Assembly (NCBI RefSeq): GCF_056712565.1
Contig: NZ_CM160072.1
Length of the DNA stretch: 64,000 bases
Reading direction: 5' to 3' (one strand)
Shown here piece by piece: positions 8,562-53,540 of the stretch. Every line of letters begins with the position of its first letter. The first letter of the stretch is position 1. Made by a program: the position numbers and the translations under genes. The notes under the pieces are model-generated. The model was given only the letters and a program-made list of their open reading frames with translations, searched no databases and was not told the origin of the DNA.

Positions 8562-8924
8562 GGGGCTGATTCTGGATTCGACGGGATTTGCGAAACCCAA
8601 GGTGCATGCCGAGGGGCGGTTGGCCTCGTAAAAAGCCGCAAAAAATAGTCGCAAACGACGAAAACTACGCTTTAGCAGCTTAATAACCTGCTTAGAGCCC
8701 TCTCTCCCTAGCCTCCGCTCTTAGGACGGGGATCAAGAGAGGTCAAACCCAAAAGAGATCGCGTGGAAGCCCTGCCTGGGGTTGAAGCGTTAAAACTTAA
8801 TCAGGCTAGTTTGTTAGTGGCGTGTCCGTCCGCAGCTGGCAAGCGAATGTAAAGACTGACTAAGCATGTAGTACCGAGGATGTAGGAATTTCGGACGCGG
8901 GTTCAACTCCCGCCAGCTCCACCA
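8562..8924 (+). ncRNA. ssrA: tmRNA (SsrA, 10Sa RNA)
   Basis: Begins GGGGCTGATTCTGGATTCGACGGGATTTGCGAAACCCAAGGTGCATGCC, contains tag-peptide coding region, ends ...GGTTCAACTCCCGCCAGCTCCACCA; 363 nt. Confidence 0.95.
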
Positions 8925-9085
8925 ATCATGATTGGACGGTGTAAGGACAACACCAACAAAAACAGGAAGTTAGAAGTCTCAGCAGGACACCGACCAGACG
9001 GTGAGGAGACATAAAAGGATACGCAAAGGAGCCGCGGCTCCGAAGTGAAATGAAAGCCCGCTGATGCGGGCTTTTTTGCTTCTTC
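8898..9085 (+). repeat. attL: ssrA 3' core (cgggttcaactcccgccagc) plus ~170 bp similar to the attR copy
   Basis: Near-identical to 53357..53540 by direct comparison, including the terminator hairpin aaagcccgctgatgcgggctttttt. Confidence 0.7.
9055..9077 (+). terminator. Rho-independent terminator downstream of ssrA
   Basis: agcccgctgatgcgggct hairpin followed by TTTTTT. Confidence 0.6.
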
Positions 9086-9452
9086 TCTTTAGCCTGATTC
9101 GACACTCTCAATGCGGCCATAAACAACAACCCACTTTTCTTATACCGTAGCCTGTCCCCCTCTTCCTGCTTTCTAACCATAACAGATGTGAGCGTTTGCT
9201 ATGAGCGATATATAGTCATTCGTACCCTCCGATACTAATCATCACAGAAATTAATATATTCATTCCTTACTGAAAAGCTATGAAGTAGATATATAGGATT
9301 GGGGCGCGTATGGCACTGGACAGTTATGCATCTCCGAATATTATTCCGGAGCTAAGACAACTAGACTGGCCCCCTGAATCTCCAGACAACCAATATCACT
9401 TATTTAAGTGATAGTCTTAATACTAGTTTTTAGACTAGTCATTGGAGAGCAG

Positions 9453-9818
9453 ATGATTGATGTCTTAGGACCGGAGAAACGCAGACGGCGTACCACACAG
9501 GAAAAGATCGCAATTGTTCAGCAGAGCTTTGAACCAGGGATGACGGTCTCCCTCGTTGCCCGGCAACATGGTGTAGCAGCCAGCCAGTTATTTCTCTGGC
9601 GTAAGCAATACCAGGAAGGAAGTCTTACTGCTGTCGCCGCCGGAGAACAGGTTGTTCCTGCCTCTGAACTTGCTGCCGCCATGAAGCAGATTAAAGAACT
9701 CCAGCGCCTGCTCGGCAAGAAAACGATGGAAAATGAACTCCTCAAAGAAGCCGTTGAATATGGACGGGCAAAAAAGTGGATAGCGCACGCGCCCTTATTG
9801 CCCGGGGATGGGGAGTAA
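9453..9818 (+). CDS. insC: IS2 transposase OrfA (InsC)
   Basis: [56 protein letters not shown]... Confidence 0.85.
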
Positions 9819-10681
9819 GCTTAGTCAGCCGTTGTCTCCGGGTGTCGCGTGCGCAGTTGCACGTCATTCTCAGACGAACCGATGACTGGATGGATGGCCG
9901 CCGCAGTCGTCACACTGATGATACGGATGTGCTTCTCCGTATACACCATGTTATCGGAGAGCTGCCCACGTATGGTTATCGTCGGGTATGGGCGCTGCTT
10001 CGCAGACAGGCAGAACTTGATGGTATGCCTGCGATCAATGCCAAACGTGTTTACCGGATCATGCGCCAGAATGCGCTGTTGCTTGAGCGAAAACCTGCTG
10101 TACCGCCATCGAAACGGGCACATACAGGCAGAGTGGCTGTGAAAGAAAGTAATCAGCGATGGTGCTCTGACGGGTTCGAGTTCCGCTGTGATAACGGAGA
10201 AAAACTGCGAGTCACGTTCGCGCTGGACTGCTGTGACCGTGAGGCACTGCACTGGGCGGTCACTACGGGCGGCTTCAACAGTGAAACAGTACAGGACGTC
10301 ATGCTGGGAGCGGTGGAACGCCGCTTCGGCAACGAGCTTCCGGCGTCTCCAGTAGAGTGGCTGACGGATAATGGTTCATGCTACCGGGCTAATGAAACAC
10401 GGCAGTTTGCCCGGATGTTGGGGCTTGAACCGAAGAGCACGGCGGTGCGGAGTCCGGAGAGTAACGGCATAGCAGAGAGCTTCGTGAAAACGATAAAGCG
10501 TGACTACATCAGTGTCATGCCCAAACCAGACGGGTTAACGGCAGCAAAGAACCTTGCAGAGGCGTTCGAGCATTATAACGAATGGCATCCGCATAGTGCA
10601 CTGGGTTATCGCTCGCCACGGGAATATCTACGGCAGCAAGCCAGTAATGGGTTAAGTGATAACAGGTGTCTGGAAATATAG
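9776..10681 (+). CDS. insD: IS2 transposase OrfB (InsD), DDE integrase-like catalytic domain
   Basis: 301 aa overlapping orfA in another frame (frameshift fusion arrangement typical of IS3 family). Confidence 0.9.
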
Positions 10682-10839
10682 GGGCAAATCCAACAACCGA
10701 ATGCCGCAGCAGGTAAGATCACGCTAGGGGGGCTGGACAGAATGGCTGTTACGCCCAGTGTGAAGAAAAGAAGGCTAAGTATGGTAGAATTTCCATACGC
10801 ACAGACCTTGTTATCCGACTATACAGCCTGGAAGGCACT

Positions 10840-11628
10840 ATGACAAATCTACAACTGGAAGAAAGATTTAGGGCGCTTGAGAAAGATTACGATGCGCTCA
10901 TTTCCACAAAATATACTGCGCAGAACGTTCTCACTCACACTATGGAAACCTATGTTGATTCTGGTAAATATAAAAACTGGATCGCCAGAGTGAAAAAGTT
11001 AATAGAGGACAGCTACGGAAAAGAGTCTGATTATTACAATGACTTCAATACTGTAAACAGCAGGTGGTCTTCTAATTACAATACACTGATCAAAAGTTAT
11101 AAACCGTTGTTTGATGCGGCGAGAGATGATCTTGCGCACTCTGCTGTCAGTACTAATACTCCTCAAGAAGGTTCGCCGCTGAGCCTCGTACTTAATATTC
11201 TTAACAGGTTTCCGACCTTTGTTCGCCAGTTAAAGAGGCGGTACAACGGCCGTGCGCCGCTTGAAGTTAATGATGAGTATGACGTACAGGATTTGATTTA
11301 TGCACTGCTGACGCTTCATTTTAATGATATTAGGGCGGAAGAGTATACCCCCAGCTTTGCGGGCGCGGCCTCAAGACAGGACTTTCTTTTGAAAAAAGAG
11401 AAAATTGTGATAGAGGTGAAGAAAACCCGTGAATCTCTGGGAGCGGGTAAAGTTGGTGGAGAGTTGCTTATTGATATGGCGCGCTACCGCGCTCACCAAG
11501 ACTGCGATACGTTGATCTTGTTTGTATATGACCCGGATTGCTACATAAATAATCCTTTGGGCGTGAAAACCGATCTGGAATCTAAAGACGCGGAAGGAAA
11601 AGTGAAGGTTGTTATTGCGCAGTTCTGA
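10840..11628 (+). CDS. Hypothetical protein, helical N-terminus and possible PD-(D/E)xK nuclease-like C-terminus; defence candidate
   Basis: 262-aa ORF; C-terminal D...(D/E)xK-like motifs (DVQDLIYALL ... KEKIVIEVKKTRE); no family recognised; lies in the accessory islet. Confidence 0.5.
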   Translation: MTNLQLEERFRALEKDYDALISTKYTAQNVLTHTMETYVDSGKYKNWIARVKKLIEDSYGKESDYYNDFNTVNSRWSSNYNTLIKSYKPLFDAARDDLAHSAVSTNTPQEGSPLSLVLNILNRFPTFVRQLKRRYNGRAPLEVNDEYDVQDLIYALLTLHFNDIRAEEYTPSFAGAASRQDFLLKKEKIVIEVKKTRESLGAGKVGGELLIDMARYRAHQDCDTLILFVYDPDCYINNPLGVKTDLESKDAEGKVKVVIAQF

Positions 11629-11663
11629 CACGCTTAAGTGTCACCTTACAGGATTAGGTTTGC

Positions 11664-11709
11664 GGCCGTGCCAGCAGGACGAGCATGAAAAAGGCCGCTG
11701 GCACGGCCG
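11664..11709. terminator. Long hairpin between convergent ORFs
   Basis: cggccgtgccagc ... gctggcacggccg, 13-bp perfect inverted repeat. Confidence 0.4.
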
Positions 11710-11715
11710 GATTTG

Positions 11716-12009
11716 TCATCTTTGCCAGGTCAAATCAAAATCTACGTGAAAATCCGCAGGCTTAAGCTCGCAACTGCCACCACGCCCAATTAACGACGTT
11801 ATGTTTACAACGTTTGAACCTGTTGAGATGGCAAGTTGAGTGTCATCTGTAAACGTGATGATTAGCATTTCAGTCTGATGAACCTGTACTCCAGTTTTCT
11901 GAAAACCAATCTGGACAGATTTCACCGTTTTCCCAACCATTTCACGGGCTTGATTGATAGAGTAATTAGCTTCAACTTGTAGGTCATTCCTGAACTTGGG
12001 TAGTGTCAT
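11716..12009 (-). CDS. Small hypothetical protein (97 aa), downstream partner of the GIY-YIG gene
   Basis: ORF co-oriented with and downstream of 12220..13026; no recognisable motif. Confidence 0.45.
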   Translation of the reverse strand: MTLPKFRNDLQVEANYSINQAREMVGKTVKSVQIGFQKTGVQVHQTEMLIITFTDDTQLAISTGSNVVNITSLIGRGGSCELKPADFHVDFDLTWQR

Positions 12010-12219
12010 TTTACATCCTCTTTAGTGAAGTTTTCGCTATTTAAATCAGCAGCATTCCTTTTAAATCACTGGCATGTCAGCAGTGGATAGTCTGAGTGTA
12101 ACGTCCAGTGAGGGGAATAAATATTGGTCAGACTTTGCACAAAAGAGCCAACTATCGCGGGCTCTCTCTCATCATGTGCGAAAATTGACCACAATATGAA
12201 ATCCAGTTCCATTCCGAAA

Positions 12220-13044
<825 letters not shown>

Positions 13045-13152
13045 TCAATTGACAACTTATAATCCCTACTAGTTAGCATTATGATTTCCAGAGTGAGGAA
13101 TATAAAAATCTCTGTTTCTGGCACATAACAGCCCTTAAGATCGTAGCTCGCC

Positions 13153-13200
13153 ATCATGGGGTGTCGGGGGGCGGAGGTTCAAATCCTCTCGTGCCGACCA
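13153..13200 (+). other. Truncated tRNA 3' fragment (T-arm, acceptor, CCA), tRNA-Pro-like
   Basis: catggggtgtcggggggcggaggttcaaatcctctcgtgccgacca resembles the 3' half of tRNA-Pro as recalled; no matching 5' half upstream; followed by hairpin + T-run at 13215-13240. Confidence 0.55.
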
Positions 13201-13441
13201 AAAATCCCTTAAGAACCAGCCTATTATGGCTGGTTTTTTTATGATTGTTTTTTATGCGGAGAAATACCGGGGAATAATTGGGGTAAAACACCTTTAGGCT
13301 ATTCACTTAGCCTACCACCATCAAAATCTTTCCGAATGTATCCATCTCTTTTTTCTTATGCAGCTAAAACGAAGTCTTGATACTGTTTATTTACACAGAT
13401 AAGAATAATACTGTCTACAAACGCAGTACAAAAGAAGTGTT

Positions 13442-13620
13442 ATGCGTATTGAGATCTCCATAGCCAAAGACAAAATGACCAAATGCCAAACGGCGCTGTG
13501 GACGCGTTAAAGGAAGAATTAACCCAACACATTGGCAAGCGTTATGACGATGTGGAGATGATCGTAAAAGCCACCAGCAACGATAGTTTTTCAGTTAGAC
13601 ATACTGCAGATAAAGATTGA
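13442..13620 (+). pseudogene. DinI-like protein, frameshifted and C-terminally truncated
   Basis: Frame 1 [14 protein letters not shown] then stop; shifted frame continues [37 protein letters not shown], matching the DinI-family pattern MRIE..IAK...LP.GA.DAL..EL. Confidence 0.5.
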
Positions 13621-14044
13621 GCTAAAACTTTCGTTCAGGAAACTCTGAATGATACCTGAGAGTCTACTGAAGAGTTGTTTGTTCACTAGTTAGCACGTAG
13701 GAAATCATTCAATACTCGCACTATCGGAAGTTCACCAGCCAGTCGTAGCACGTCCTTGCAAACGACGTGCCTACGGTTTCAATCACCTCTCACCATCAAT
13801 TCTATCAATAATAATTAAACAGCGCCTAGACAAAATAAATAACAACAAGTCAACAACCTCGACAGGATGCCGATGGGATGATGAAGAGATAAGAAAGAAT
13901 AACCAGTAAAGCCCTAAAACGTCAGCGTTCAGACGCGTTTTTTACTTAATCGGTAACAAATACGTTGTATCATAGCAAAATAAAATGATTGTTCTAAATC
14001 AGATTAACTCCTCACTTTTGTACAATGTCGCTTACAGGTATACC

Positions 14045-15934
14045 ATGAAATCCGAGACGCTAACTGTCCAACAACTTTTTCAAGACCGCCGACAATACTG
14101 TGTTCCATTCTATCAACGTGCCTATGTATGGACTCAGCAAGACCAGTGGTCAGCTCTACTGGAGGATATCCTAGAGAAAGTACAATCCCGGCTCTCGGGT
14201 ACAAAACCAACTCCCCATTTCCTTGGTGCGGTTGTACTGGAACCTCAATCAAAAAAAGGATTATTAGGTGTAGATTCCATACATATTATTGATGGTCAGC
14301 AACGATTGACCACTCTTCAATATGTTCTGGCATCCATCCGATTAGCATTACGTGCTACGGATCTTTCCAGCTTAGAGGCTCTCATTTCGCCTTGCCTGAA
14401 AAACTCAAACGAAGACACAATGCGAAATAAAGAAGTAGAACGCTTCAAACTGTGGCCAACTTTTCGGGATCAAACTCATTTTATTCAAAGTTTTAATGTT
14501 GAAAATATTGACGATCTCCGGGACGTATTCTCTGATAGTTTCACGCAGCATGGTACGTTGCGTAAGCATTTTAATCACCCGCCATCACTAGAAGCATTAT
14601 GTTTTTTTACTGAAGCCTTTATAAAATGGATTAAAATAGAAAACCACTCACCACAAGAAAATGCTGTAGCTCTAATTGAGGCTGTCTTAACAGATCTGAA
14701 ACTGGTAAGCATATTTCTCGAAGCTGAAGATGATGCCCAAATAATTTTTGAAACATTAAATGGGCGAGGGGCGGAACTTCATGCTACGGATCTTATTCGC
14801 AACTATATCTTTATGTGCGCTGAGCATGAAAATATTAATGCTATTGAATTATATGAAAATGAGTGGAAGAGCTTTGAAGATAAATACTGGTCGGAAAAAC
14901 AACGCCGTGGACGTATTAATAAACCACGCATGGAGTGGCTAGTACATGCGACATTGCAATCAGAAAGGCAACGTGAAATTGATCTGTCTCGCCTTTACAA
15001 TGAGTATCGTGATTATGTAAGTAAGGACTTGTCTTCACAACGAGCAGATCTGCAAGTAAAGCGCCTCAAACAATATGCATCACAATATAAAGAATTGGTT
15101 GATGGTTTTGGCACAACCCCCATCTCACACTTTGGATATCGCATCGCAGACTATGATGTGACGACACTTTATCCGCTTGCTTTGTTCATTTCGATAGCTA
15201 ACATCGCTGATGATGAGAAAGCAGCCATGTATAATGATCTTGTCTCCTACGTAGTACGAAGAGCCGTATGTGGCCTGACGCCAAAGAATTACAACAATGT
15301 ATTTATGAATGTATTGCGGCACTTGGCTAAAACGGAAATTTCCAGTGTTGAGTTACGTAATATCCTCAATAACTTAAATGGCGAAGCCTCACGTTGGCCT
15401 GGTGACTCAGAATTTCTCAACGCTTGCATCAATGCTCCACTTTATCCTGGCAGGCTCGACGCACCGAAAATGCGCTCAATGTTAACGGAACTTGAAAGAG
15501 AACTTTGTCGCCAAGTAAAGACAGAAAAGCCTGATGTTCCAAATCTTTCTAATCTCGATATCGATCATCTTATGCCTCAAAGTTGGTATTCCTGTTGGCC
15601 TCTCGAAAATGGTCGTATGGTGACAAATTCAGATGCTACGGTATTGAACCAAATTGTTCTGTCTGGAACCGATCTTACCCCTGAACAGCTACTGGTAAGG
15701 AAACGGCAACAAGCGATATCTACTTTGGGAAATCTAACTTTGCTTAACCTTAGCGTAAACCGTTCTGTTCAGAATGCTGTATTTCTGAAAAAACGTGATG
15801 CTCTCATCGTCCACACCAATCTACGACTGAACATTCCACTTATAGTTAAGGATAAATGGGATGAGGATGAAATCCTGGAGCGGGGTAAAAAGTTGGGGGA
15901 AATTGCATTGAAAGTATGGCCAAAACACGATTAA
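14045..15934 (+). CDS. Type IV restriction endonuclease, GmrSD-like (N-terminal DUF262/ParB-like, C-terminal DUF1524/HNH-like)
   Basis: N-terminal DGQQRLTTL motif; C-terminal DIDHLMPQSW...N motif; start taken at MKSETLTVQQLF; AT-rich gene. Confidence 0.75.
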   Translation: MKSETLTVQQLFQDRRQYCVPFYQRAYVWTQQDQWSALLEDILEKVQSRLSGTKPTPHFLGAVVLEPQSKKGLLGVDSIHIIDGQQRLTTLQYVLASIRLALRATDLSSLEALISPCLKNSNEDTMRNKEVERFKLWPTFRDQTHFIQSFNVENIDDLRDVFSDSFTQHGTLRKHFNHPPSLEALCFFTEAFIKWIKIENHSPQENAVALIEAVLTDLKLVSIFLEAEDDAQIIFETLNGRGAELHATDLIRNYIFMCAEHENINAIELYENEWKSFEDKYWSEKQRRGRINKPRMEWLVHATLQSERQREIDLSRLYNEYRDYVSKDLSSQRADLQVKRLKQYASQYKELVDGFGTTPISHFGYRIADYDVTTLYPLALFISIANIADDEKAAMYNDLVSYVVRRAVCGLTPKNYNNVFMNVLRHLAKTEISSVELRNILNNLNGEASRWPGDSEFLNACINAPLYPGRLDAPKMRSMLTELERELCRQVKTEKPDVPNLSNLDIDHLMPQSWYSCWPLENGRMVTNSDATVLNQIVLSGTDLTPEQLLVRKRQQAISTLGNLTLLNLSVNRSVQNAVFLKKRDALIVHTNLRLNIPLIVKDKWDEDEILERGKKLGEIALKVWPKHD

Positions 15935-16029
15935 TGCAATTAATAAAATGATTATAGTGGCCTTACATTAGTAAGGCCGCTACTCACTATTAAATACTTT
16001 AATTTGCATCAAGAACAGCAGTGTCAGCC

Positions 16030-16158
16030 CTAGGTCTCGGACTTTGTACCGCTTATCTTGTCTTCAAAAATCAGCTCGCATCCTGCACAGTTCAGCGCAT
16101 TACGTTGTAGATCTGTGTTCTGGTCATTTGTTGACACACGTACATAGCCAATAAGCAT
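16030..16158 (-). pseudogene. DNA invertase (Pin/Gin/Hin family) truncated to an N-terminal ~41-codon fragment
   Basis: Reverse-strand translation MLIGYVRVSTNDQNTDLQRNALNCAGCELIFEDKISGTKSET then stop; N-terminus of serine invertases including the catalytic-Ser region. Confidence 0.75.
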
Positions 16159-16184
16159 GGTAGATCTCCCTGACAAAAGCAGGA

Positions 16185-16679
16185 ATGATGCCATTTGCTC
16201 GTTATTTCTGCATTTTCATAAACGTTGGTTTGGGAGAAGGCTCTGCATTACCTGTTGGTGTGCCTGTTCCATGGCCTTCAGCCACACCGCCAACAGGCTG
16301 GCTGAAATGCAACGGTGCGGCTTTTTCTGCTGAAGAATACCCGGAACTGGCAAAGGCTTATCCGACAAATAAATTGCCTGATTTACGTGGTGAGTTTATT
16401 CGTGGCTGGGATGATGGGCGCGGCGTTGATTCAAGGCGTGCGGTGCTGTCAACACAAGAGCCAACTGTAGGTACTTTTTATGTGGAGCTAGCTATCATCT
16501 CGGGAACTTTGAGCGGCTCAGGTGCTAAATTTACCGATTCAGTAGGGATTGGATCAACCAGTAGTAACATTACCGTTAGCAACGGTAATGACCAGTCCGT
16601 GTCGGGTACAGTGGCCGTTAACCCCGTCGATACCCGTCCACGCAACATTGCATTTAACTATATCGTGAGAGCAGCATAA
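16185..16679 (+). CDS. Alternative tail-fibre C-terminal cassette (Sv'-like), in the unexpressed orientation
   Basis: Contains phage tail-collar-like motif VPVPWPSATPPTGWLKCNGAAFSAEEYPELAKAYP; shares the LGLGE crossover sequence with the expressed tail-fibre gene. Confidence 0.7.
   Translation: MMPFARYFCIFINVGLGEGSALPVGVPVPWPSATPPTGWLKCNGAAFSAEEYPELAKAYPTNKLPDLRGEFIRGWDDGRGVDSRRAVLSTQEPTVGTFYVELAIISGTLSGSGAKFTDSVGIGSTSSNITVSNGNDQSVSGTVAVNPVDTRPRNIAFNYIVRAA
16226..16240. repeat. Left inverted repeat / crossover site of the invertible tail-fibre segment
   Basis: ttggtttgggagaag is the exact reverse complement of 18141..18155. Confidence 0.65.
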
Positions 16680-43051: not shown

Positions 43052-43989
43052 CCCCTGAATCCTGCCGGGATCTGGCTGTAGTCCACGTTGTCGTAACTGG
43101 CTTTGAAGTACGGGTCCTCGCGTTTTTCGGTGTACGTACTTACGGACGGCGATAAGCGCAGGGAAAGCTCATCCCATTTTTCCCGCAGCTTCGACGGGCT
43201 GAGCACGTTACGGCACCAGAACGGATCGCGGCTGACGCGGCTGTACATCTCGCAGATTTGTTTGTGAGTACGACCATCCTGCACACACATCAGGCGAATT
43301 TCGTTTGCCCAGGCTGTCCAGTTCGGTTCTTTGGGACGAACCACCTCGCCGTCACATTCGGCAGCCTGCTCGTACAGGGCGATGATTTTTTTCCAGAGCC
43401 ACTGTGCGCAGGTCAAATCATCCTGCGTTCCCCACTGGCGCTTTTTAGGGCTGAATACAACAGCATCAGGATGGCGAGTTAAAAACTCCTGTTCAGCCGT
43501 CTGCGTGTCCGGTTGCGAAGCGTCCGGACGAGAAGTTTTTTTATCTGACGGATCATGTTTTGATTTTACTGACGGATCCCCGCCAGATTCTGACGGGTGA
43601 AAACCCGCTTTTTTGCCAGATTTCGACGCATCAAATTTTGACGGGGCAGATTTTGATGCGTCAGATTTTGACGGGTCAGAATCTGACAGTTGAGAAAATG
43701 CCGCTGCCTGAAGCTTCGCAACGTTAAGCTGATAAACATTCGACGCATTGCGGTTACCCTGGCGACGCGCCTTACGCGTTAACCAGCCTTCTGCTTCCAG
43801 CCGTGCGATAGCCGTTCTGACGGTACTCATCCCCGCGCCAATCTGGCGGGCAATGGTTTCAATTGATGGCCAGCACACACCTTCGTCATTACTGAAATCA
43901 GCCAGGCGGGCCATAATTGCCACGCTGGATAACTTCATGCCTGACGCAGCGCAACCATCCCATACATAGCCGGTTAATTTAGTGCTCAT
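43048..43989 (-). CDS. Replication initiation protein (O-like; N-terminal HTH, internal iteron-encoded repeat region)
   Basis: 313 aa; N-terminal winged-helix-like region; middle low-complexity SKSDASKSAPSKFDASKSGKK encoded by tandem DNA repeats. Confidence 0.6.
   Translation of the reverse strand: MSTKLTGYVWDGCAASGMKLSSVAIMARLADFSNDEGVCWPSIETIARQIGAGMSTVRTAIARLEAEGWLTRKARRQGNRNASNVYQLNVAKLQAAAFSQLSDSDPSKSDASKSAPSKFDASKSGKKAGFHPSESGGDPSVKSKHDPSDKKTSRPDASQPDTQTAEQEFLTRHPDAVVFSPKKRQWGTQDDLTCAQWLWKKIIALYEQAAECDGEVVRPKEPNWTAWANEIRLMCVQDGRTHKQICEMYSRVSRDPFWCRNVLSPSKLREKWDELSLRLSPSVSTYTEKREDPYFKASYDNVDYSQIPAGFRG
43541..43695. repeat. Iteron-like tandem repeats (~8 copies of ~15 bp, GAtTtTGACGgntCA) inside the replication gene; candidate origin
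   Basis: ttatctgacggatca / gattttactgacgga / gattctgacgggtga / gatttcgacgcatca / aattttgacggggca / gattttgatgcgtca / gattttgacgggtca / gaatctgacagttga. Confidence 0.55.
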
Positions 43990-48982: not shown

Positions 48983-49090
48983 AAATCAGCACGTACGAAT
49001 TCAAACTCTGCCATAAAAGAACATATAAGTAATTTATTAACATATAGATATAGGTTATATTACAAATTGAAAAATTATTGGAGAGCAACA

Positions 49091-49957
49091 ATGAATCAAA
49101 ATCCATTCTCATTCTATGACTTTCTTGGATATTTAATACCAGGTGGTTTTTTTATCCTATTAATGTATTTCTGTGGTTTGACATTCGATCTAGATATTGT
49201 TATTGACTTAAGTGAATTGCTCAGAGGTCAAAGTCAAATCTTTGGCATTTTGAACTACGCTTCAATAGTTATTATATCTTATATAGCTGGACATTTTATT
49301 TCTATCACGTCAGCATTTTTTATCGAAAAATACATGAATAAAGAATTAGGATATCCTTCCAAATATCTATTTAAAAAATTGATAGATACCTCAGAAAGCA
49401 TTTGTAGCCCATCATGCGATGAGAGAAGCGCTGATAAAAAAACAAAAATAAAGAATCGCATAATCAAATGCGTATTATGTCCAATAATACTATGGGATTT
49501 TATAACACAAAAACTATGTTATTCTCAATCTCTACCATTTCATTTAGCTAATACAACATGGTTAATGATCAAAGAAGGTTATGAGAAAAAGTTCATAACA
49601 AATCGCCAATTATTACAAGATAAAAACGGACTTGATGATGATCTCTTCAGATTGGCATATCATTATGTTTATGAGTTTTCAAAACAACATCAAACAAAAA
49701 TTCAAAACTATGTTGCATTATATGGTTTTTGCAGAAACATATGTTTAATCTTTATAATTTCATTTTGGGTATCAGTTCCAACCTTTATTTATCGATTATG
49801 TACTCATAGTGATTATCTTTATAGTTTACTTTCAATAATGCTTAGCTTTTTCTTCGTCTATGTTTTCTATGTTGGTTTTGTTAAATTTTATAGAAGATAT
49901 ACTTTAGAAGTATTAATGGCATTTGCTGTACTTCAAAGTAACGACACTATTCGTTAA
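49091..49957 (+). CDS. AT-rich multi-TM membrane protein of unknown function, next to xis; candidate exclusion/abortive-infection gene
   Basis: 288 aa from MNQNPFSFYD with GGAGAG RBS; hydrophobic helices at both ends; markedly AT-rich versus flanks. Confidence 0.5.
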   Translation: MNQNPFSFYDFLGYLIPGGFFILLMYFCGLTFDLDIVIDLSELLRGQSQIFGILNYASIVIISYIAGHFISITSAFFIEKYMNKELGYPSKYLFKKLIDTSESICSPSCDERSADKKTKIKNRIIKCVLCPIILWDFITQKLCYSQSLPFHLANTTWLMIKEGYEKKFITNRQLLQDKNGLDDDLFRLAYHYVYEFSKQHQTKIQNYVALYGFCRNICLIFIISFWVSVPTFIYRLCTHSDYLYSLLSIMLSFFFVYVFYVGFVKFYRRYTLEVLMAFAVLQSNDTIR

Positions 49958-49998: not shown

Positions 49999-50205
49999 AT
50001 GCTGAACCTCGATTGTGTTCCTATCTCAACTTATTGCAAAGAAACTGGCGAAACTCCTGAAGCAATAAACAAACGTGTACAGCGCGGTGTTTGGCGTGAA
50101 GGTGTTCAGGTTTTAAAGGTTGAAGGCGTTAAGGAGAGGTGGATTGATCTTAGTGAGGTTGCAAAATGGGCCAGACAAAACTGCTCAAACTACCGCGCGG
50201 CGTAA
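49999..50205 (+). CDS. Excisionase (Xis-like DNA-binding protein)
   Basis: Small basic protein immediately upstream of and overlapping the integrase; start at MLNLDC with GGAG RBS. Confidence 0.5.
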   Translation: MLNLDCVPISTYCKETGETPEAINKRVQRGVWREGVQVLKVEGVKERWIDLSEVAKWARQNCSNYRAA

Positions 50206-51338
50206 CAATCAGGAAACACCACCAGGGAGAAACGATCAATATAACTTTCACCTACAAAGGAGTTAGATGTCGTGAGCCGCTTTCCAATCTGGAAGTAACA
50301 CCAAAGAACATTAAATACGCCGAGCGTACACTCGGCGAAATCCATAATAAGATCGAAAGGGGAACATTCATTTATGCAGAATATTTTCCCCGTTCTGCTC
50401 GTTTGAAAATTTTTGGTAATGCTGCTGCAAGCAAAACGGTAAAGATGTACCTGGACGAATATCTTGAAATCTGCGAAACAAGAAAACTTTCACCCTCTAC
50501 GATTGGTGGCTATAAAAAATGCCGTAGTGCGTTAGCCTCACTTCACATTTGCCCTGCAAGTGAATTAACACCAGCAACCCTGAAAGCGTGGATTCAAAGC
50601 CAGAAAACAACCTTAAAAACCATTCGCAACCAGTTATCTTTCCTACGGTCAGCACTTGATGAAGCCGTGACCGATGGGGTACTTCAAATTAACCCCGTAT
50701 CGTTAGTAACAGCTTCGCGCTACCAAAGTGATAAGTCAGAAGCAGAAAGCAGCTATGTGGTTGATCCGCTATCACCAGCAGAAGTTGATGCATTACTAGC
50801 AGCAGCCGGAAACAAACAATGGGAAAATCTGTTCCGGTTCGCCATACATACAGGCCTGCGTAGTTCTGAATTATGTGCCCTACGATGGCATGATATCGAC
50901 TTTGTTGGAAAAACAGCCCATGTTCAGAGCGCAAGTGTTGTCGGAGTTATCAAAGGAACAAAGACAAAAGCCGGTACCCGTAAAGTTGAACTGACTGAAG
51001 AAGCAATGTTGGCGTTGATAAACCAGAAGCCATTTACATTCATGAAGGATGCTACTGTCTTTGAAGATCCAAAGACCAATAAACCCTGGGCAAGTGCTGA
51101 TGCAATTAGGAAAAAAGCATGGGTGCCAACATTGCGAAAAGCAGGTATTCGTTACAGAAACCCATATCAAACCAGGCATACATTCGCCACCAGCCATATC
51201 AGCCGGGGAGCAAACCTGTTTTGGCTTGCGGCTCAAATGGGCCATAAAGGGCCTGAAATGTTATTCAGGCACTATGGACAATACTTGAAAGAGTATGATG
51301 GGAGGGCAAGTATCAAGGATAAAAAGGCTTTATTTTAA
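50166..51338 (+). CDS. Tyrosine-type phage integrase
   Basis: 390 aa; C-terminal R...HTFATSH...GHKGPEMLFRHYGQY gives the R-H-R-Y catalytic signature. Confidence 0.85.
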   Translation: MGQTKLLKLPRGVTIRKHHQGETINITFTYKGVRCREPLSNLEVTPKNIKYAERTLGEIHNKIERGTFIYAEYFPRSARLKIFGNAAASKTVKMYLDEYLEICETRKLSPSTIGGYKKCRSALASLHICPASELTPATLKAWIQSQKTTLKTIRNQLSFLRSALDEAVTDGVLQINPVSLVTASRYQSDKSEAESSYVVDPLSPAEVDALLAAAGNKQWENLFRFAIHTGLRSSELCALRWHDIDFVGKTAHVQSASVVGVIKGTKTKAGTRKVELTEEAMLALINQKPFTFMKDATVFEDPKTNKPWASADAIRKKAWVPTLRKAGIRYRNPYQTRHTFATSHISRGANLFWLAAQMGHKGPEMLFRHYGQYLKEYDGRASIKDKKALF

Positions 51339-51947
51339 GTCATTATGCCAATCGTCTACTGTTTGAAACCAAATTTTTAACCTTTGCATAAAGGTACGAT
51401 CCTTTTTGGGAGGGTGGTACCTTTGAAAAGAAGTATGTAACGCTTCGATAACTCCCATACAAGCATCAATTACTTCTTGTGCTTTAACCGGGCGATCGGC
51501 ATCTGAAAGCTTGTGAGCGACCTCACAATCCAGAGTTGCTTTCTCTAGTACAGATGAGAACACCTCGTCAGGTATATACAGTCCTCTGCTTTCCAAAATG
51601 CAAATCAGTTTGGAAACTTGTTGAGCTTTAGCCAAGATAGTTAACAAGTATGAAACAGAAGCCTTTGTTCTATCCTTTTGCAACCTTAACAATCGATGCT
51701 TTGATGCTCTAATTTTAGGTTGAGTTGTCTGACTGAGCCAATAGTTAGAAGAAATATCAGAAATTTCAATAACTAACTTTGAAATAGCATCAATAATTGA
51801 TTTCGATTCAGAACGTGTCGCCAGTTTTACAGAATTATTGTACGCAACTCGCCATCCAATGAAAACTAAGCAGACGCTAACTACTGTGATACACCACGAA
51901 TACTGTCCTATTTGTGCTACTAATGACATTGGTTCCGTACTGATCAA
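51330..51947 (-). CDS. Single-TM hypothetical protein; third gene of candidate defence operon
   Basis: 205 aa with N-terminal TM helix (YSWCITVVSVCLVFIGW); 10 bp downstream of the STAS-like gene. Confidence 0.5.
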   Translation of the reverse strand: MISTEPMSLVAQIGQYSWCITVVSVCLVFIGWRVAYNNSVKLATRSESKSIIDAISKLVIEISDISSNYWLSQTTQPKIRASKHRLLRLQKDRTKASVSYLLTILAKAQQVSKLICILESRGLYIPDEVFSSVLEKATLDCEVAHKLSDADRPVKAQEVIDACMGVIEALHTSFQRYHPPKKDRTFMQRLKIWFQTVDDWHNDLK

Positions 51948-51957
51948 CTATCGCCTC

Positions 51958-52284
51958 TTATACTCTTTCTGGTTGTGCTAAATCAATAAATTTATCAATC
52001 TGTTCTTTGTAGAACGGAACATCACTTTTTATAATCAAACGTGCTTTAACGTTGGCTTTAGGTATCCCTTCCTTACGGATGAGACCTCCAAACGCCTCTT
52101 CTAAGAAAGAGGAACCAACACCCAGTGCTATACCGCGAAAATCAACCACAATCTCCTGTTCAGTACCCTTCAGCGCAGGCACCAAAAACTCTCTACGAAA
52201 TCTTTCCGCACTGTGTGGGCTATCCGTTGTGTAACGTCCGAAAGGTGTTCTGGAGAACTCCTTCGCTATGACGATATTTCTCAT
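51958..52284 (-). CDS. STAS-like (DUF4325-like) protein; second gene of candidate defence operon
   Basis: 108 aa with VVDFRGIALGVGSSFLEEAFGGL, matching the DUF4325 core motif as I recall it. Confidence 0.5.
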   Translation of the reverse strand: MRNIVIAKEFSRTPFGRYTTDSPHSAERFRREFLVPALKGTEQEIVVDFRGIALGVGSSFLEEAFGGLIRKEGIPKANVKARLIIKSDVPFYKEQIDKFIDLAQPERV

Positions 52285-52288
52285 AAAA

Positions 52289-53200
52289 TCATCTCCTGGG
52301 AACCAGCGACCATTGTAGTAAAGTACCCGGTATGTACTCAGCTAGCTTCTCACATCGAGGACTACTGTCATTAGAATTATAGCTATAACGAGCCCTTCCT
52401 ATTAGTATCAGAAGTGTCTCATTATCCTCACAACCTGCCCCAATAGGTCTCTTGATATCTTCAGAGCCATTTCCCCGTCCGGAACCAACAAAGCGGGATT
52501 CCCCTACTAACATAGCTCTTTCCACAGAAGATACTTCGTTTTGAATGCTATGACCATCACCATTAGGCACGAAACTTCTATAAATCCCCAATCCAAGGTC
52601 ACAAACGATAAAAACGACTTTATTTTCATCACGATTGAACCAAGCGCACTGCCACCATCGTTTACCTTTGAGAAGCTGAATATCTGACTCGAACCCCTCA
52701 TCTTCATACGCATGATGAGAAACATTGAGCAAAGCTTCACTAATCGCTGTCAGCAGTAAGCCTAACTGTTCATTATTAAGCAGAGCACTTTTCTGCAGCA
52801 TGAGTACTGTTTCAACAATATGCTCGTAAGGTTCGACAGCTGACTGAAAGTATCGTTCCTCCCTCGTAAGTGCATTCAGTTTCTCTTCTGTGCCAGCAAG
52901 CAAAGCACGAGCAAGTCCAGTACCAACGATCCATCTATGCCCAGATGGGTTATCATCCTTTTTAGGCCATTTAAAACGTATAAAATTAGGGTCCCGGGTT
53001 AAAAATTGAGCTCTATTTACTATGGCAAAGAACAGTACCGATGCCGCAGCTGAGGCAAATTTTACCTTGGACAAATCAACTATAACTCGACCTTTATTTT
53101 TTACTCCAATCGATTCAATCGAGTTGATGAAGTTCAATGTCCCAGCCCTAGAATCATCTGAGTAAATGCAAAATTTGCTTGGGGGTACCAGTATGGTCAT
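52289..53200 (-). CDS. GHKL-type ATPase (histidine kinase/anti-sigma kinase-like fold); first gene of candidate defence operon
   Basis: N-box EALLNVSHHAY, G1 box CDLGLG, G2-like GSGRGNG; 303 aa; AT-rich. Confidence 0.6.
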   Translation of the reverse strand: MTILVPPSKFCIYSDDSRAGTLNFINSIESIGVKNKGRVIVDLSKVKFASAAASVLFFAIVNRAQFLTRDPNFIRFKWPKKDDNPSGHRWIVGTGLARALLAGTEEKLNALTREERYFQSAVEPYEHIVETVLMLQKSALLNNEQLGLLLTAISEALLNVSHHAYEDEGFESDIQLLKGKRWWQCAWFNRDENKVVFIVCDLGLGIYRSFVPNGDGHSIQNEVSSVERAMLVGESRFVGSGRGNGSEDIKRPIGAGCEDNETLLILIGRARYSYNSNDSSPRCEKLAEYIPGTLLQWSLVPRR

Positions 53201-53356
53201 AGCGATGTCATTCTTATACGATGGATTTATAGATTATCTACTATTCATAGTTGGTTATGAAGACTGGGATATAACAGTAAAAGATACGTGTAAGATCCGC
53301 AAGATAGTTAATGTCGAAAAAATCATTAATTACATCAAGTTAGTGATATTTGGACT

Positions 53357-53540
53357 CGGGTTCAACTCCCGCCAGCCAATCATGATTGGACGGTGTAAGG
53401 ACTACACCAACAAAAACAGGAAGTTATAAGTCTCAGCAGGACACCGACCAGACGGTGAGGAGACAAAAAAGGATACGCAACGGAGTCGCGACTCCCTATG
53501 ACATTAAAGCCCGCTGATGCGGGCTTTTTTATTGGTCCTG
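53357..53540 (+). repeat. attR: second copy of the ssrA 3' core plus ~170 bp flanking sequence, with terminator
   Basis: cgggttcaactcccgccagc followed by sequence ~90% identical to 8918-9085 (5-bp tccac indel) and hairpin aaagcccgctgatgcgggctttttt. Confidence 0.7.

Follow-up and report, generated by a model that had tools for sequence, protein, structure and literature searches.

The DNA analysed here, a stretch of 64,000 nucleotides (nt) from contig NZ_CM160072.1 of NCBI RefSeq assembly GCF_056712565.1 (hereafter the window), carries a prophage integrated at the tmRNA gene ssrA. Inside this prophage, at 13110-13289, lies a segment related to the tRNA-Pro gene proL, called the relic below. 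It is most probably (about 80%) an orphan, truncated phage attachment site of the proL type, left behind by a swap of the integrase and attachment (att) module. From the ssrA boundaries of the prophage, its sole and unrelated integrase and its recurrence in strain C1 we conclude that ssrA is where the phage integrates and that the internal proL site has been orphaned. An earlier note, made from the letters of the window alone, had proposed a fossil tRNA-Pro-type attachment site in the accessory region of a prophage, placed there by module exchange. The fossil site was confirmed by the proL match and by a right arm like that of proL-integrating phages; module exchange agrees with an accessory arm of the proL-phage kind combined with an integrase and att site of the ssrA type. 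The same note had the site captured from a different element, which has to be reversed: the relic belongs to the phage's own tail-fibre-proximal arm (98.6-98.9% identity over 13143-16239), and the integrase/att module was what changed.

Prophage and integration site

The window is part of an Escherichia coli chromosome, identical to that of ATCC 11775 and of ST95-type strains (e.g. UTI89, APEC O1 and UM146) except for one copy of IS2. The features that define the prophage are the following.

8562-8924 (+): ssrA (tmRNA), the actual integration target of the prophage (ARAGORN; Rfam, 295.8 bits)
8890-9077 (+): left ssrA att repeat, the last ~35 nt of ssrA and ~150 nt of downstream DNA with a terminator (direct-repeat families D1, D3 and D13, and alignment)
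8925-53348 (no strand assigned): SfV/e14-like myovirus prophage integrated at ssrA, ~43 kb plus IS2 (annotation of the identical ATCC 11775 region)
~9360-10700 (+): IS2 insertion in the cargo region just past the ssrA repeat, absent from the ATCC 11775 reference
50166-51338 (+): tyrosine integrase of the ssrA-associated type, the only one of the prophage (phrog_1 integrase, E = 1.9e-63)
53349-53530 (+): right ssrA att repeat, without 5 nt (CTCCA) of the ssrA 3' end (direct-repeat search and alignment)

The repeat of ~185 nt, which includes the terminator beyond ssrA, forms the bounds of 8925-53348. As CTCCA is missing from the right repeat, this copy cannot encode the CCA end. A repeat search of the window found no second proL-like or ssrA-like copy inside the prophage. 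The proL-like core is single in the window and the prophage ends are the ssrA repeats, so that the relic, which lies 4.2 kb from the left end, is neither the left (attL) nor the right (attR) attachment site of the resident prophage. A displaced 3' end of ssrA was also considered for the fragment and rejected, the 3' end of ssrA being different and having its duplicate at 53349-53530.

Strain C1 has the complete unit, with the relic, at ssrA next to a different right-hand chromosomal flank. The integrase is located 37 kb from the relic and is unrelated to the integrase of the proL-integrated prophage remnant of APEC E19057 (BLASTP E = 0.057). A 95.7% identical integrase gene was found in a lambdoid prophage integrated at ssrA in ST131 strain 4433, which is otherwise a different prophage and has the same attL and attR sequences. 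In its early region, yfdPQR and integrase the window prophage resembles this ST131 phage, and in its accessory arm the proL-integrated phage; this combination is the signature of a module swap. With the IS2 copy, spacing differs by 1,336 bp from that of the reference locus L001. Only ~5 of 5,426 complete genomes have the full arrangement.

Anatomy of the relic

Within the relic the following parts were distinguished.

13110-13289 (+): whole conserved relic, consisting of a short leader, an 82-nt tRNA-Pro-like sequence, a terminator and the proximal P' arm with arm-type repeats
13119-13200 (+): degenerate full-length tRNA-Pro(GGG)-like pseudo-tRNA of 82 nt, with acceptor and T arms kept and the D arm replaced by a longer variable segment (alignments)
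13143-13200 (+): clean proL match, proL positions 20-77 (anticodon arm, variable loop, T arm, 3' acceptor strand and CCA)
13154-13209 (+): identity block of bacterial attB (proL), attL, attR and phage attP, from the anticodon loop (CATGGGG...) to 9 nt beyond CCA (alignments of proL, APEC E19057 and phages Flotzy and Eeyore)
13211-13241 (+): terminator-like hairpin and T-run, the phage-borne counterpart of the proL terminator (terminator scan; 11 pairs, 13211-13238)
13258-13286 (+): GGGGAAT-type direct repeats of the P' arm, with GGGGAAT at 13269-13275, GGGGTAA at 13280-13286 and a degenerate third at 13258-13264

The clean match is identical to native E. coli proL (tRNA-Pro GGG) at 54 of 58 positions, anticodon GGG and CCA included, and the mismatches fall at 13148, 13150, 13153 and 13171. 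The tRNA-Pro 3' match of about 47 nt reported earlier is thus real, but its extent was wrong, since the 58 nt take in the anticodon arm. The 28-mer ...GGAGGTTCAAATCCTCTCGTGCCGACCA at 13173-13200 occurs once in the window and had no matches in shuffled sequences. By BLAST (E ~1e-26 against 28 Gb), the comparison with proL loci that the earlier note had asked for, 13143-13242 aligned to proL and its 3' flank with 86-89% identity in all 5,425 matching E. coli genomes, and the alignments began at 13143. By these matches the sequence is derived from tRNA-Pro(GGG). The fragment is part of a larger conserved element of ~180 nt (13110-13289), exceeding what had been described before.

The identity block has one mismatch in 56 nt, at 13171. 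It is common to attB, attL, attR and attP, and integrases of the proL type must cross over within it. Downstream of the block, the hairpin and T-run that had been noticed earlier have the form of a putative intrinsic terminator, with G+C pairs in the stem and a U-run; the hairpin also forms in the minimum-free-energy structure. This terminator is homologous to the native proL terminator, with both stem arms changed (ACCAGCC/GGCTGGT versus ACCAACC/GGTTGGT). The GGGGAAT-type repeats that follow are putative arm-type binding sites for an integrase.

The 5' half at 13119-13142 could be recognised only through phage homologues, because its direct comparison with native proL fell short of significance (shuffle p ~0.07, and 22% of window tiles reach the same score). 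It shows clear homology with the 5' halves of the 82-nt tRNA-Pro-like elements carried by phages, and the claim that the fragment lacks a 5' half was therefore mistaken: a degenerate one is present. Its 5' acceptor strand, TGGCACA, pairs at 6 of 7 positions with the 3' acceptor strand, the D region has 5 nt more than a normal tRNA, and 13143-13156 is identical to native proL at 11 of 14 positions. The DNA upstream of 13110 is the promoter/upstream region of the defence gene PD-T4-3 and is homologous to a locus in an unrelated prophage of E24377A; it contains no GGGGAA motif.

A functional tRNA at the relic was rejected. ARAGORN called no tRNA there, and the Rfam tRNA model (RF00005) scored 15.5 bits against a gathering score of 29, which is below the level of a tRNA gene; the tRNA-finder check suggested in the earlier note was accordingly negative as to a gene, while the similarity to proL itself was clear. 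A narrower Rfam scan of the relic kept only a partial tmRNA-like 3' match. In the minimum-free-energy fold a 6-bp acceptor-like stem and the T arm are kept and the D arm is lacking. In annotation the site should bear the label pseudo-tRNA/att relic, being neither a tRNA gene nor a prophage boundary.

Comparison with working proL sites

The free phages Flotzy (PP925827) and Eeyore (PP925821) carry, in this order, an integrase, the proL core ~137 nt past the integrase stop codon, a terminator, repeats, UmuD/DinI, an invertase and tail fibres. This arrangement is a standard attP of a tRNA-targeting phage. Their integrase is 76% identical to that of the proL remnant in APEC E19057. Three GGGGAAT-type repeats follow the core at +58, +69 and +80 after CCA, 10-11 nt apart, and one further repeat lies in the P arm at about -176 from CCA, together with conserved sequence; a similar GGGGAGA is present in the same stretch of the APEC attR. 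The two good repeats of the window, at 13269 and 13280, have the same spacing as those of Flotzy and Eeyore, and the third is degenerate.

In APEC E19057 an intact proL is directly followed, as the relic is in the window, by the dinI pseudogene, the DUF262 gene, the invertase remnant and the tail-fibre genes. Some 16 kb beyond, an integrase gene and two small genes are followed by a second tRNA-Pro-like copy, next to which stands the normal neighbour of proL. Two annotated tRNA-Pro copies (104-180 and 16189-16266 of the extracted locus, L005) thus flank a proL prophage remnant. In the alignment of proL, both junctions and the window, the flanks of the APEC junctions are bacterial or phage-derived as expected of attL and attR. 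The right arm of the window was 98.9% identical to the APEC sequence after proL over 13143-13882 (740 nt) and 98.6% identical over 13878-16239 (2,362 nt). Of the 8 mismatches in the first 740 nt, 3 are located within the first 11 nt, at 13148-13153 (P ~1e-4), so that the ancestry shared with the APEC attL begins in the core. This is the expectation if the window keeps its own 5' flank, an attL being compared with an unrecombined site.

Compared with the functional attP of Flotzy, Eeyore and APEC E19057, the relic has the identity block and, as far as can be read from the letters, a P' arm in which tandem repeats come behind a terminator borne by the phage. The P arm, with its repeat at about -176 and its conserved sequence, is missing from the window, as is a cognate integrase nearby.

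In the distal, 78-nt tRNA-Pro of APEC E19057 the 5' half comes from the phage, and its acceptor strand can still pair with the 3' strand. Judging from this copy, lysogens may carry a hybrid second proL-like gene; among the IMG/VR copies that resemble it, ARAGORN called none.

Related elements in other genomes and phages

A search with the left junction, which had been advised earlier, retrieved 11 E. coli genomes, e.g. AR_0128, with an 82-nt element annotated as tRNA-Pro by PGAP. In AR_0128 the element is located in the accessory region of an SfV-like prophage remnant within a tandem array at thrW, and 13110-13289 aligned to it without gaps at 150 of 180 positions (83%, E = 6e-52). The RefSeq/PGAP call of tRNA-Pro for this copy (locus L013, 5008-5089; NZ_CP021722) has no support from ARAGORN or Rfam and is probably a false positive. 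Divergence between the window and AR_0128 was distributed unevenly over the element.

5' half: 26%
Core, from the anticodon loop through CCA: 2%
3' trailer with the terminator: 9%
Distal P' arm: 30%

A scan of IMG/VR in which the exact 46-nt core was required gave at least 120 loci; the counts in this paragraph are among the matches listed. About 37 loci have P arms like those of Flotzy or APEC, nearly all with a proL-type integrase 132-3168 nt upstream, and the few without an integrase have short upstream DNA. Another ~25 loci have the window-like 5' half (TGGCACATA...) with its short conserved leader, the terminator and the P' repeats; a proL-type integrase was found near none of them. Upstream they carry variable cargo, which appears defence-like, and the contig end is 0.04-3.6 kb away in most and 4.5-10 kb away in three. 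The chromosomal proL neighbour yejM adjoins native-type 5' halves only. Two loci, L087 and L126, combine a left part of the AR_0128 type (98%) with a right part of the window type (95%), which places mosaic joints inside the element.

Shortened copies were found as well. In the cultured lambdoid phage PhiR11_1 the copy at this position is mutated and truncated at its 3' end, and E24377A (locus L009, 7760-8125) has the leader and the first 7 nt of the relic (TGGCACA) and nothing further; together they form a decay series. The E24377A stub lies alongside a homologue of PD-T4-3 (89% DNA identity) in the nin-like region of a lambdoid prophage, a linkage that suggests joint movement of the defence gene and the stub. 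That TGGCACA is part of a PD-T4-3 module was set aside, and E24377A was read as a further-truncated copy of the element and not as counter-evidence. In cultured-phage records no junction of PD-T4-3 with the relic was found. Gifsy-2 (locus L008, NC_010393, 44256-44334) carries a related proL-like 3' fragment, also an orphan; a terminator and GGGG repeats accompany it, and sseI, an effector gene, lies nearby. A T-to-G change in the variable loop is common to this fragment and the window. A limited literature search on prophage integration at proL and on orphan att sites returned nothing specific and no account of the relic or of the TGGCACATA family.

Short direct repeats

The 9-mer CCCTTAAGA occurs exactly twice in the 64 kb, and both copies fall in the relic.

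13132-13140 (+): left copy, in the degenerate D-loop region; judged coincidental
13206-13214 (+): right copy, in the proL-like 3' trailer; judged coincidental

These are the 9-bp direct repeats that had been described as flanking the fragment. They exist, but they give no evidence of target-site duplication or capture, because they are not conserved in homologues, where the two copies vary independently:

AR_0128: left copy CCTTCATGG, right copy CCCTTAAGA
IMG/VR locus L114: left copy CCCTTAAGA, right copy CCTCGAAGA
APEC E19057: native proL 5' half on the left, right copy CCCTTAAAA

A 9-mer direct repeat of some kind is present in 3.6% of 110-nt window tiles. On the variation among homologues and this background, both a target-site duplication and a second reading, in which a degenerate tandem copy of the 3' trailer ends in the left 9-mer, were rejected, and the perfect pair in the window lineage is probably a coincidence.

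Proposed history and alternative explanations

Phages that target proL normally have an attP that reproduces proL from its anticodon loop to a point beyond CCA and includes a terminator and arm-type repeats of their own. With both the proL sequence and a terminator in attP, integration rebuilds an intact, terminated proL. We infer the direction and mechanism of the exchange as follows. In an ancestor of the SfV/e14-like prophage the proL site would have been located between the integrase and the accessory arm with dinI and tail fibres. Recombination with another temperate phage may then have removed the P arm together with the integrase and the cargo beside them. In their place would have come a module with cargo of its own, an integrase specific for ssrA and an attP of the ssrA type, and one junction of the exchange would lie at or just left of the tRNA-like sequence. 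Integration would from then on have taken place at ssrA, with the proL site remaining as an internal relic between newer cargo and the older accessory arm. Lacking a cognate integrase and P-arm sites, the relic can presumably not direct integration alone. Its remaining roles are probably passive: it would provide homology at which phage mosaics are joined, and termination of transcription is a further possible function.

Several observations weigh against a simple version of this history. Core and terminator differ by 2-9% from those of AR_0128 and the flanks by 26-30%, which is unlike a purely neutral old relic and requires recent orphaning, gene conversion with proL or proL-type phages, or residual function. 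The left boundary is near-identical in all window-like elements, which points to a single early truncation with later spread, and not to an exchange peculiar to this prophage. Of 5,426 E. coli genomes none has a proL-integrated prophage with exactly this 5' half, and the direct ancestor with a working site was accordingly not observed. The putative arm-type role of the GGGGAAT repeats, finally, is suggested by position and repetition.

Part of these data could also be explained by an attL origin, in which a proL prophage excised aberrantly or recombined upstream of proL, took along the 5' half of the tRNA and some leader bases, and decayed later. The tRNA-like 5' half, with its pairing acceptor strand and its similarity to proL at 13143-13156, would then come from the chromosome; the different look of the P arms of integrase-linked attPs and the lack of a P-arm integrase site in the window would also follow. 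However, neither yejM nor a recognisable native proL leader is present upstream of the ~25 window-like loci among the matches listed, the 5' half has diverged by ~26% between relatives while the adjoining core has diverged by ~2%, and the 5-nt-longer D region in all members points to one ancestral phage-borne copy and not to repeated captures. We regard this origin as unlikely. In a further reading the site is still active, acted upon by a proL-type integrase in trans or by RecA on the conserved block of 50-90 nt, and serves as a portable junction that shuffles cargo cassettes between phages with different integrases. Such activity would fit a core that is near intact, with its one mismatch in 56 nt, the two good P' repeats, core and terminator conserved far above the flanks, and the reassortment of arms, since left and right parts occur as AR_0128/AR_0128, AR_0128/window (L087, L126), window/window and native/window. 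Yet the relic has none of the P-arm sites that every integrase-linked attP shows, and throughout the 5,426 genomes the window-type element has one invariant left junction, with no sign of ongoing rearrangement with proL. Ordinary homologous recombination at any conserved stretch could also explain the reassortment. The core conservation seen in IMG/VR is moreover partly ascertainment, the exact core having been required, and PhiR11_1 shows that the element can decay. A still active site is accordingly quite unlikely.

A role as functional RNA, either an expressed tRNA-like RNA or a tRNA-like 3' end and terminator that ends or processes cargo transcripts, draws on the strong terminator, on a fold more stable than that of shuffled sequences (z = -3.1) and on the PGAP annotation of the AR_0128 copy; in several IMG/VR loci among the matches listed an upstream cargo open reading frame (ORF) also reads toward the element, with its stop 22-123 nt before it. 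It is nevertheless very improbable: none of the 27 phage-borne copies tested was called by ARAGORN, which does call the native proL gene; Rfam tRNA scores were 15-15.5 bits, well under the gathering score; the canonical D arm and G18/G19 are absent; and in relatives base changes frequently disrupt the pairing of the 5' acceptor strand. Covariation in the hairpin of the variable D region, judged by eye, was inconsistent among members. In the window itself the gene next to the relic reads from the other strand, and promoter-like sites are lacking over the ~100 nt upstream, the nearest on the + strand being at 12983-13010. Hardly credible is a tandem arrangement in which a small island at 8925-13142 precedes the prophage and the fragment marks their boundary. 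Tandem arrays often occur at tRNA and tmRNA genes, as they do at thrW in AR_0128, and the cargo at the left differs from that of related prophages; but the left segment has no integrase and no ssrA or proL repeats of its own, the sole repeats flank the entire 44 kb, and the whole unit is intact in another chromosomal background. For lack of internal repeats and of a second integrase the tandem-island model was rejected.

An orphan site left by module swapping is an ordinary explanation, a by-product of exchange between phages, and does not overturn current understanding. It does record a phage that is conserved apart from a proL-to-ssrA swap of its integrase/att module, and it places the breakpoint to within a few tens of bases. 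The recurrence of a 180-nt element beside variable defence cargo in many phages, a possible anchor for mining defence-gene hotspots, might be the sole aspect worth more work. It could tentatively be taken further, to a widespread conserved junction element at the edge of a hotspot of anti-phage cargo that is still recombinogenic through homologous exchange or a proL-type integrase in trans, a view that we consider rather unlikely. If it were true, defence cassettes would be swapped at this element between phages of different integrases and chromosomal sites, and the element would be a junction element of enterobacterial temperate phages and more than debris.

Comparison with known systems

Phage attP sites that target tRNA genes at an anticodon-loop sublocation have reportedly been described by Campbell and, in 2002, by Williams. 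Such sites have the 3' part of the tRNA from the anticodon loop, an identity block extending beyond CCA and arm-type repeats by the core, all of which are present here as in Flotzy, Eeyore and APEC E19057; the relic differs in having no cognate integrase or P arm and in lying inside a prophage integrated elsewhere. With these three it shares the core, the type of terminator, the P' repeats and the position between the integrase side and the dinI, invertase and tail-fibre genes. Where they have a conserved P arm and a proL-type integrase 132-3168 nt upstream, the window has PD-T4-3 cargo.

Pseudo-tRNA att relics are found in cryptic prophages of E. coli K-12, for instance ptwF of CP4-6 and pawZ of CPS-53. 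Like the relic these are tRNA 3' fragments left by site-specific integration, and they are annotated as pseudo-tRNAs; unlike it they represent a displaced attR at the edge of the element that created them, whereas the relic is internal and its site is no longer used by the resident phage. In phage lambda the b region, which is dispensable accessory DNA, separates the tail-fibre genes from attP-int. The corresponding region of this prophage contains the relic, along with anti-phage cargo: PD-T4-3/CMoRE, a type IV restriction enzyme and a restriction-endonuclease-like ORF. Lambda has one attP at the end of this region, whereas the window has an old attP remnant and a new attP beyond extra cargo.

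The Gifsy-2 fragment has the same core variant, with G in the variable loop, a terminator and GGGG-type repeats, and lies near the prophage end beside cargo in a phage that integrates elsewhere. It differs in having no tRNA-like 5' half and in belonging to another genus (Salmonella) and phage type.

Cargo genes

The genes nearest to the relic are as follows.

10840-11628: 262-aa ORF with an Aga helical-REase-like domain
12220-12993 (-): GIY-YIG nuclease PD-T4-3 (CMoRE), adjoining the relic on the left (PADLOC PD-T4-3, E = 8.6e-137)
13442-13659: dinI pseudogene, between the relic and the DUF262 gene
14045-15934 (+): DUF262 protein, type IV methyl-directed restriction enzyme, to the right of the relic (PADLOC mREase_IV, 1415 bits; annotation)

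The relic separates PD-T4-3/CMoRE and two small ORFs on the left from the dinI pseudogene, the type IV restriction enzyme, the invertase remnant and the tail fibres on the right, and the cargo on its left is unlike that of related prophages. Nuclease-type anti-phage genes thus cluster around it, at 10840-15934, and both PD-T4-3/CMoRE and the DUF262 type IV enzyme target modified phage DNA. The PD-T4-3 segment is present in APEC O1 at 100% identity. PD-T4-3/CMoRE has been characterised and the structure of the APEC O1 protein was solved (PMC12923530).

At the other end of the prophage, three cargo genes (51330-53200, - strand; 205 aa, a 108-aa STAS-like protein and 303 aa) are located between the integrase and the right ssrA repeat. 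They match PHROG families without assigned function and had no PADLOC or NCBIfam match; the ST131 relative has one single, different gene in their place. They could be an accessory system of an uncharacterised kind. Just upstream of the integrase, at 49067-49957, a 296-aa predicted membrane protein is encoded (phrog_12528; weak Csx27-like PADLOC match, E = 1.4e-5), and its gene is absent from the APEC and ST131 relatives. Five 15-nt units in tandem, CAGATTTTGACGnGn, form repeat family D2 at 43617-43691, within the early region of the prophage, and could be iterons or repeats within a coding sequence.

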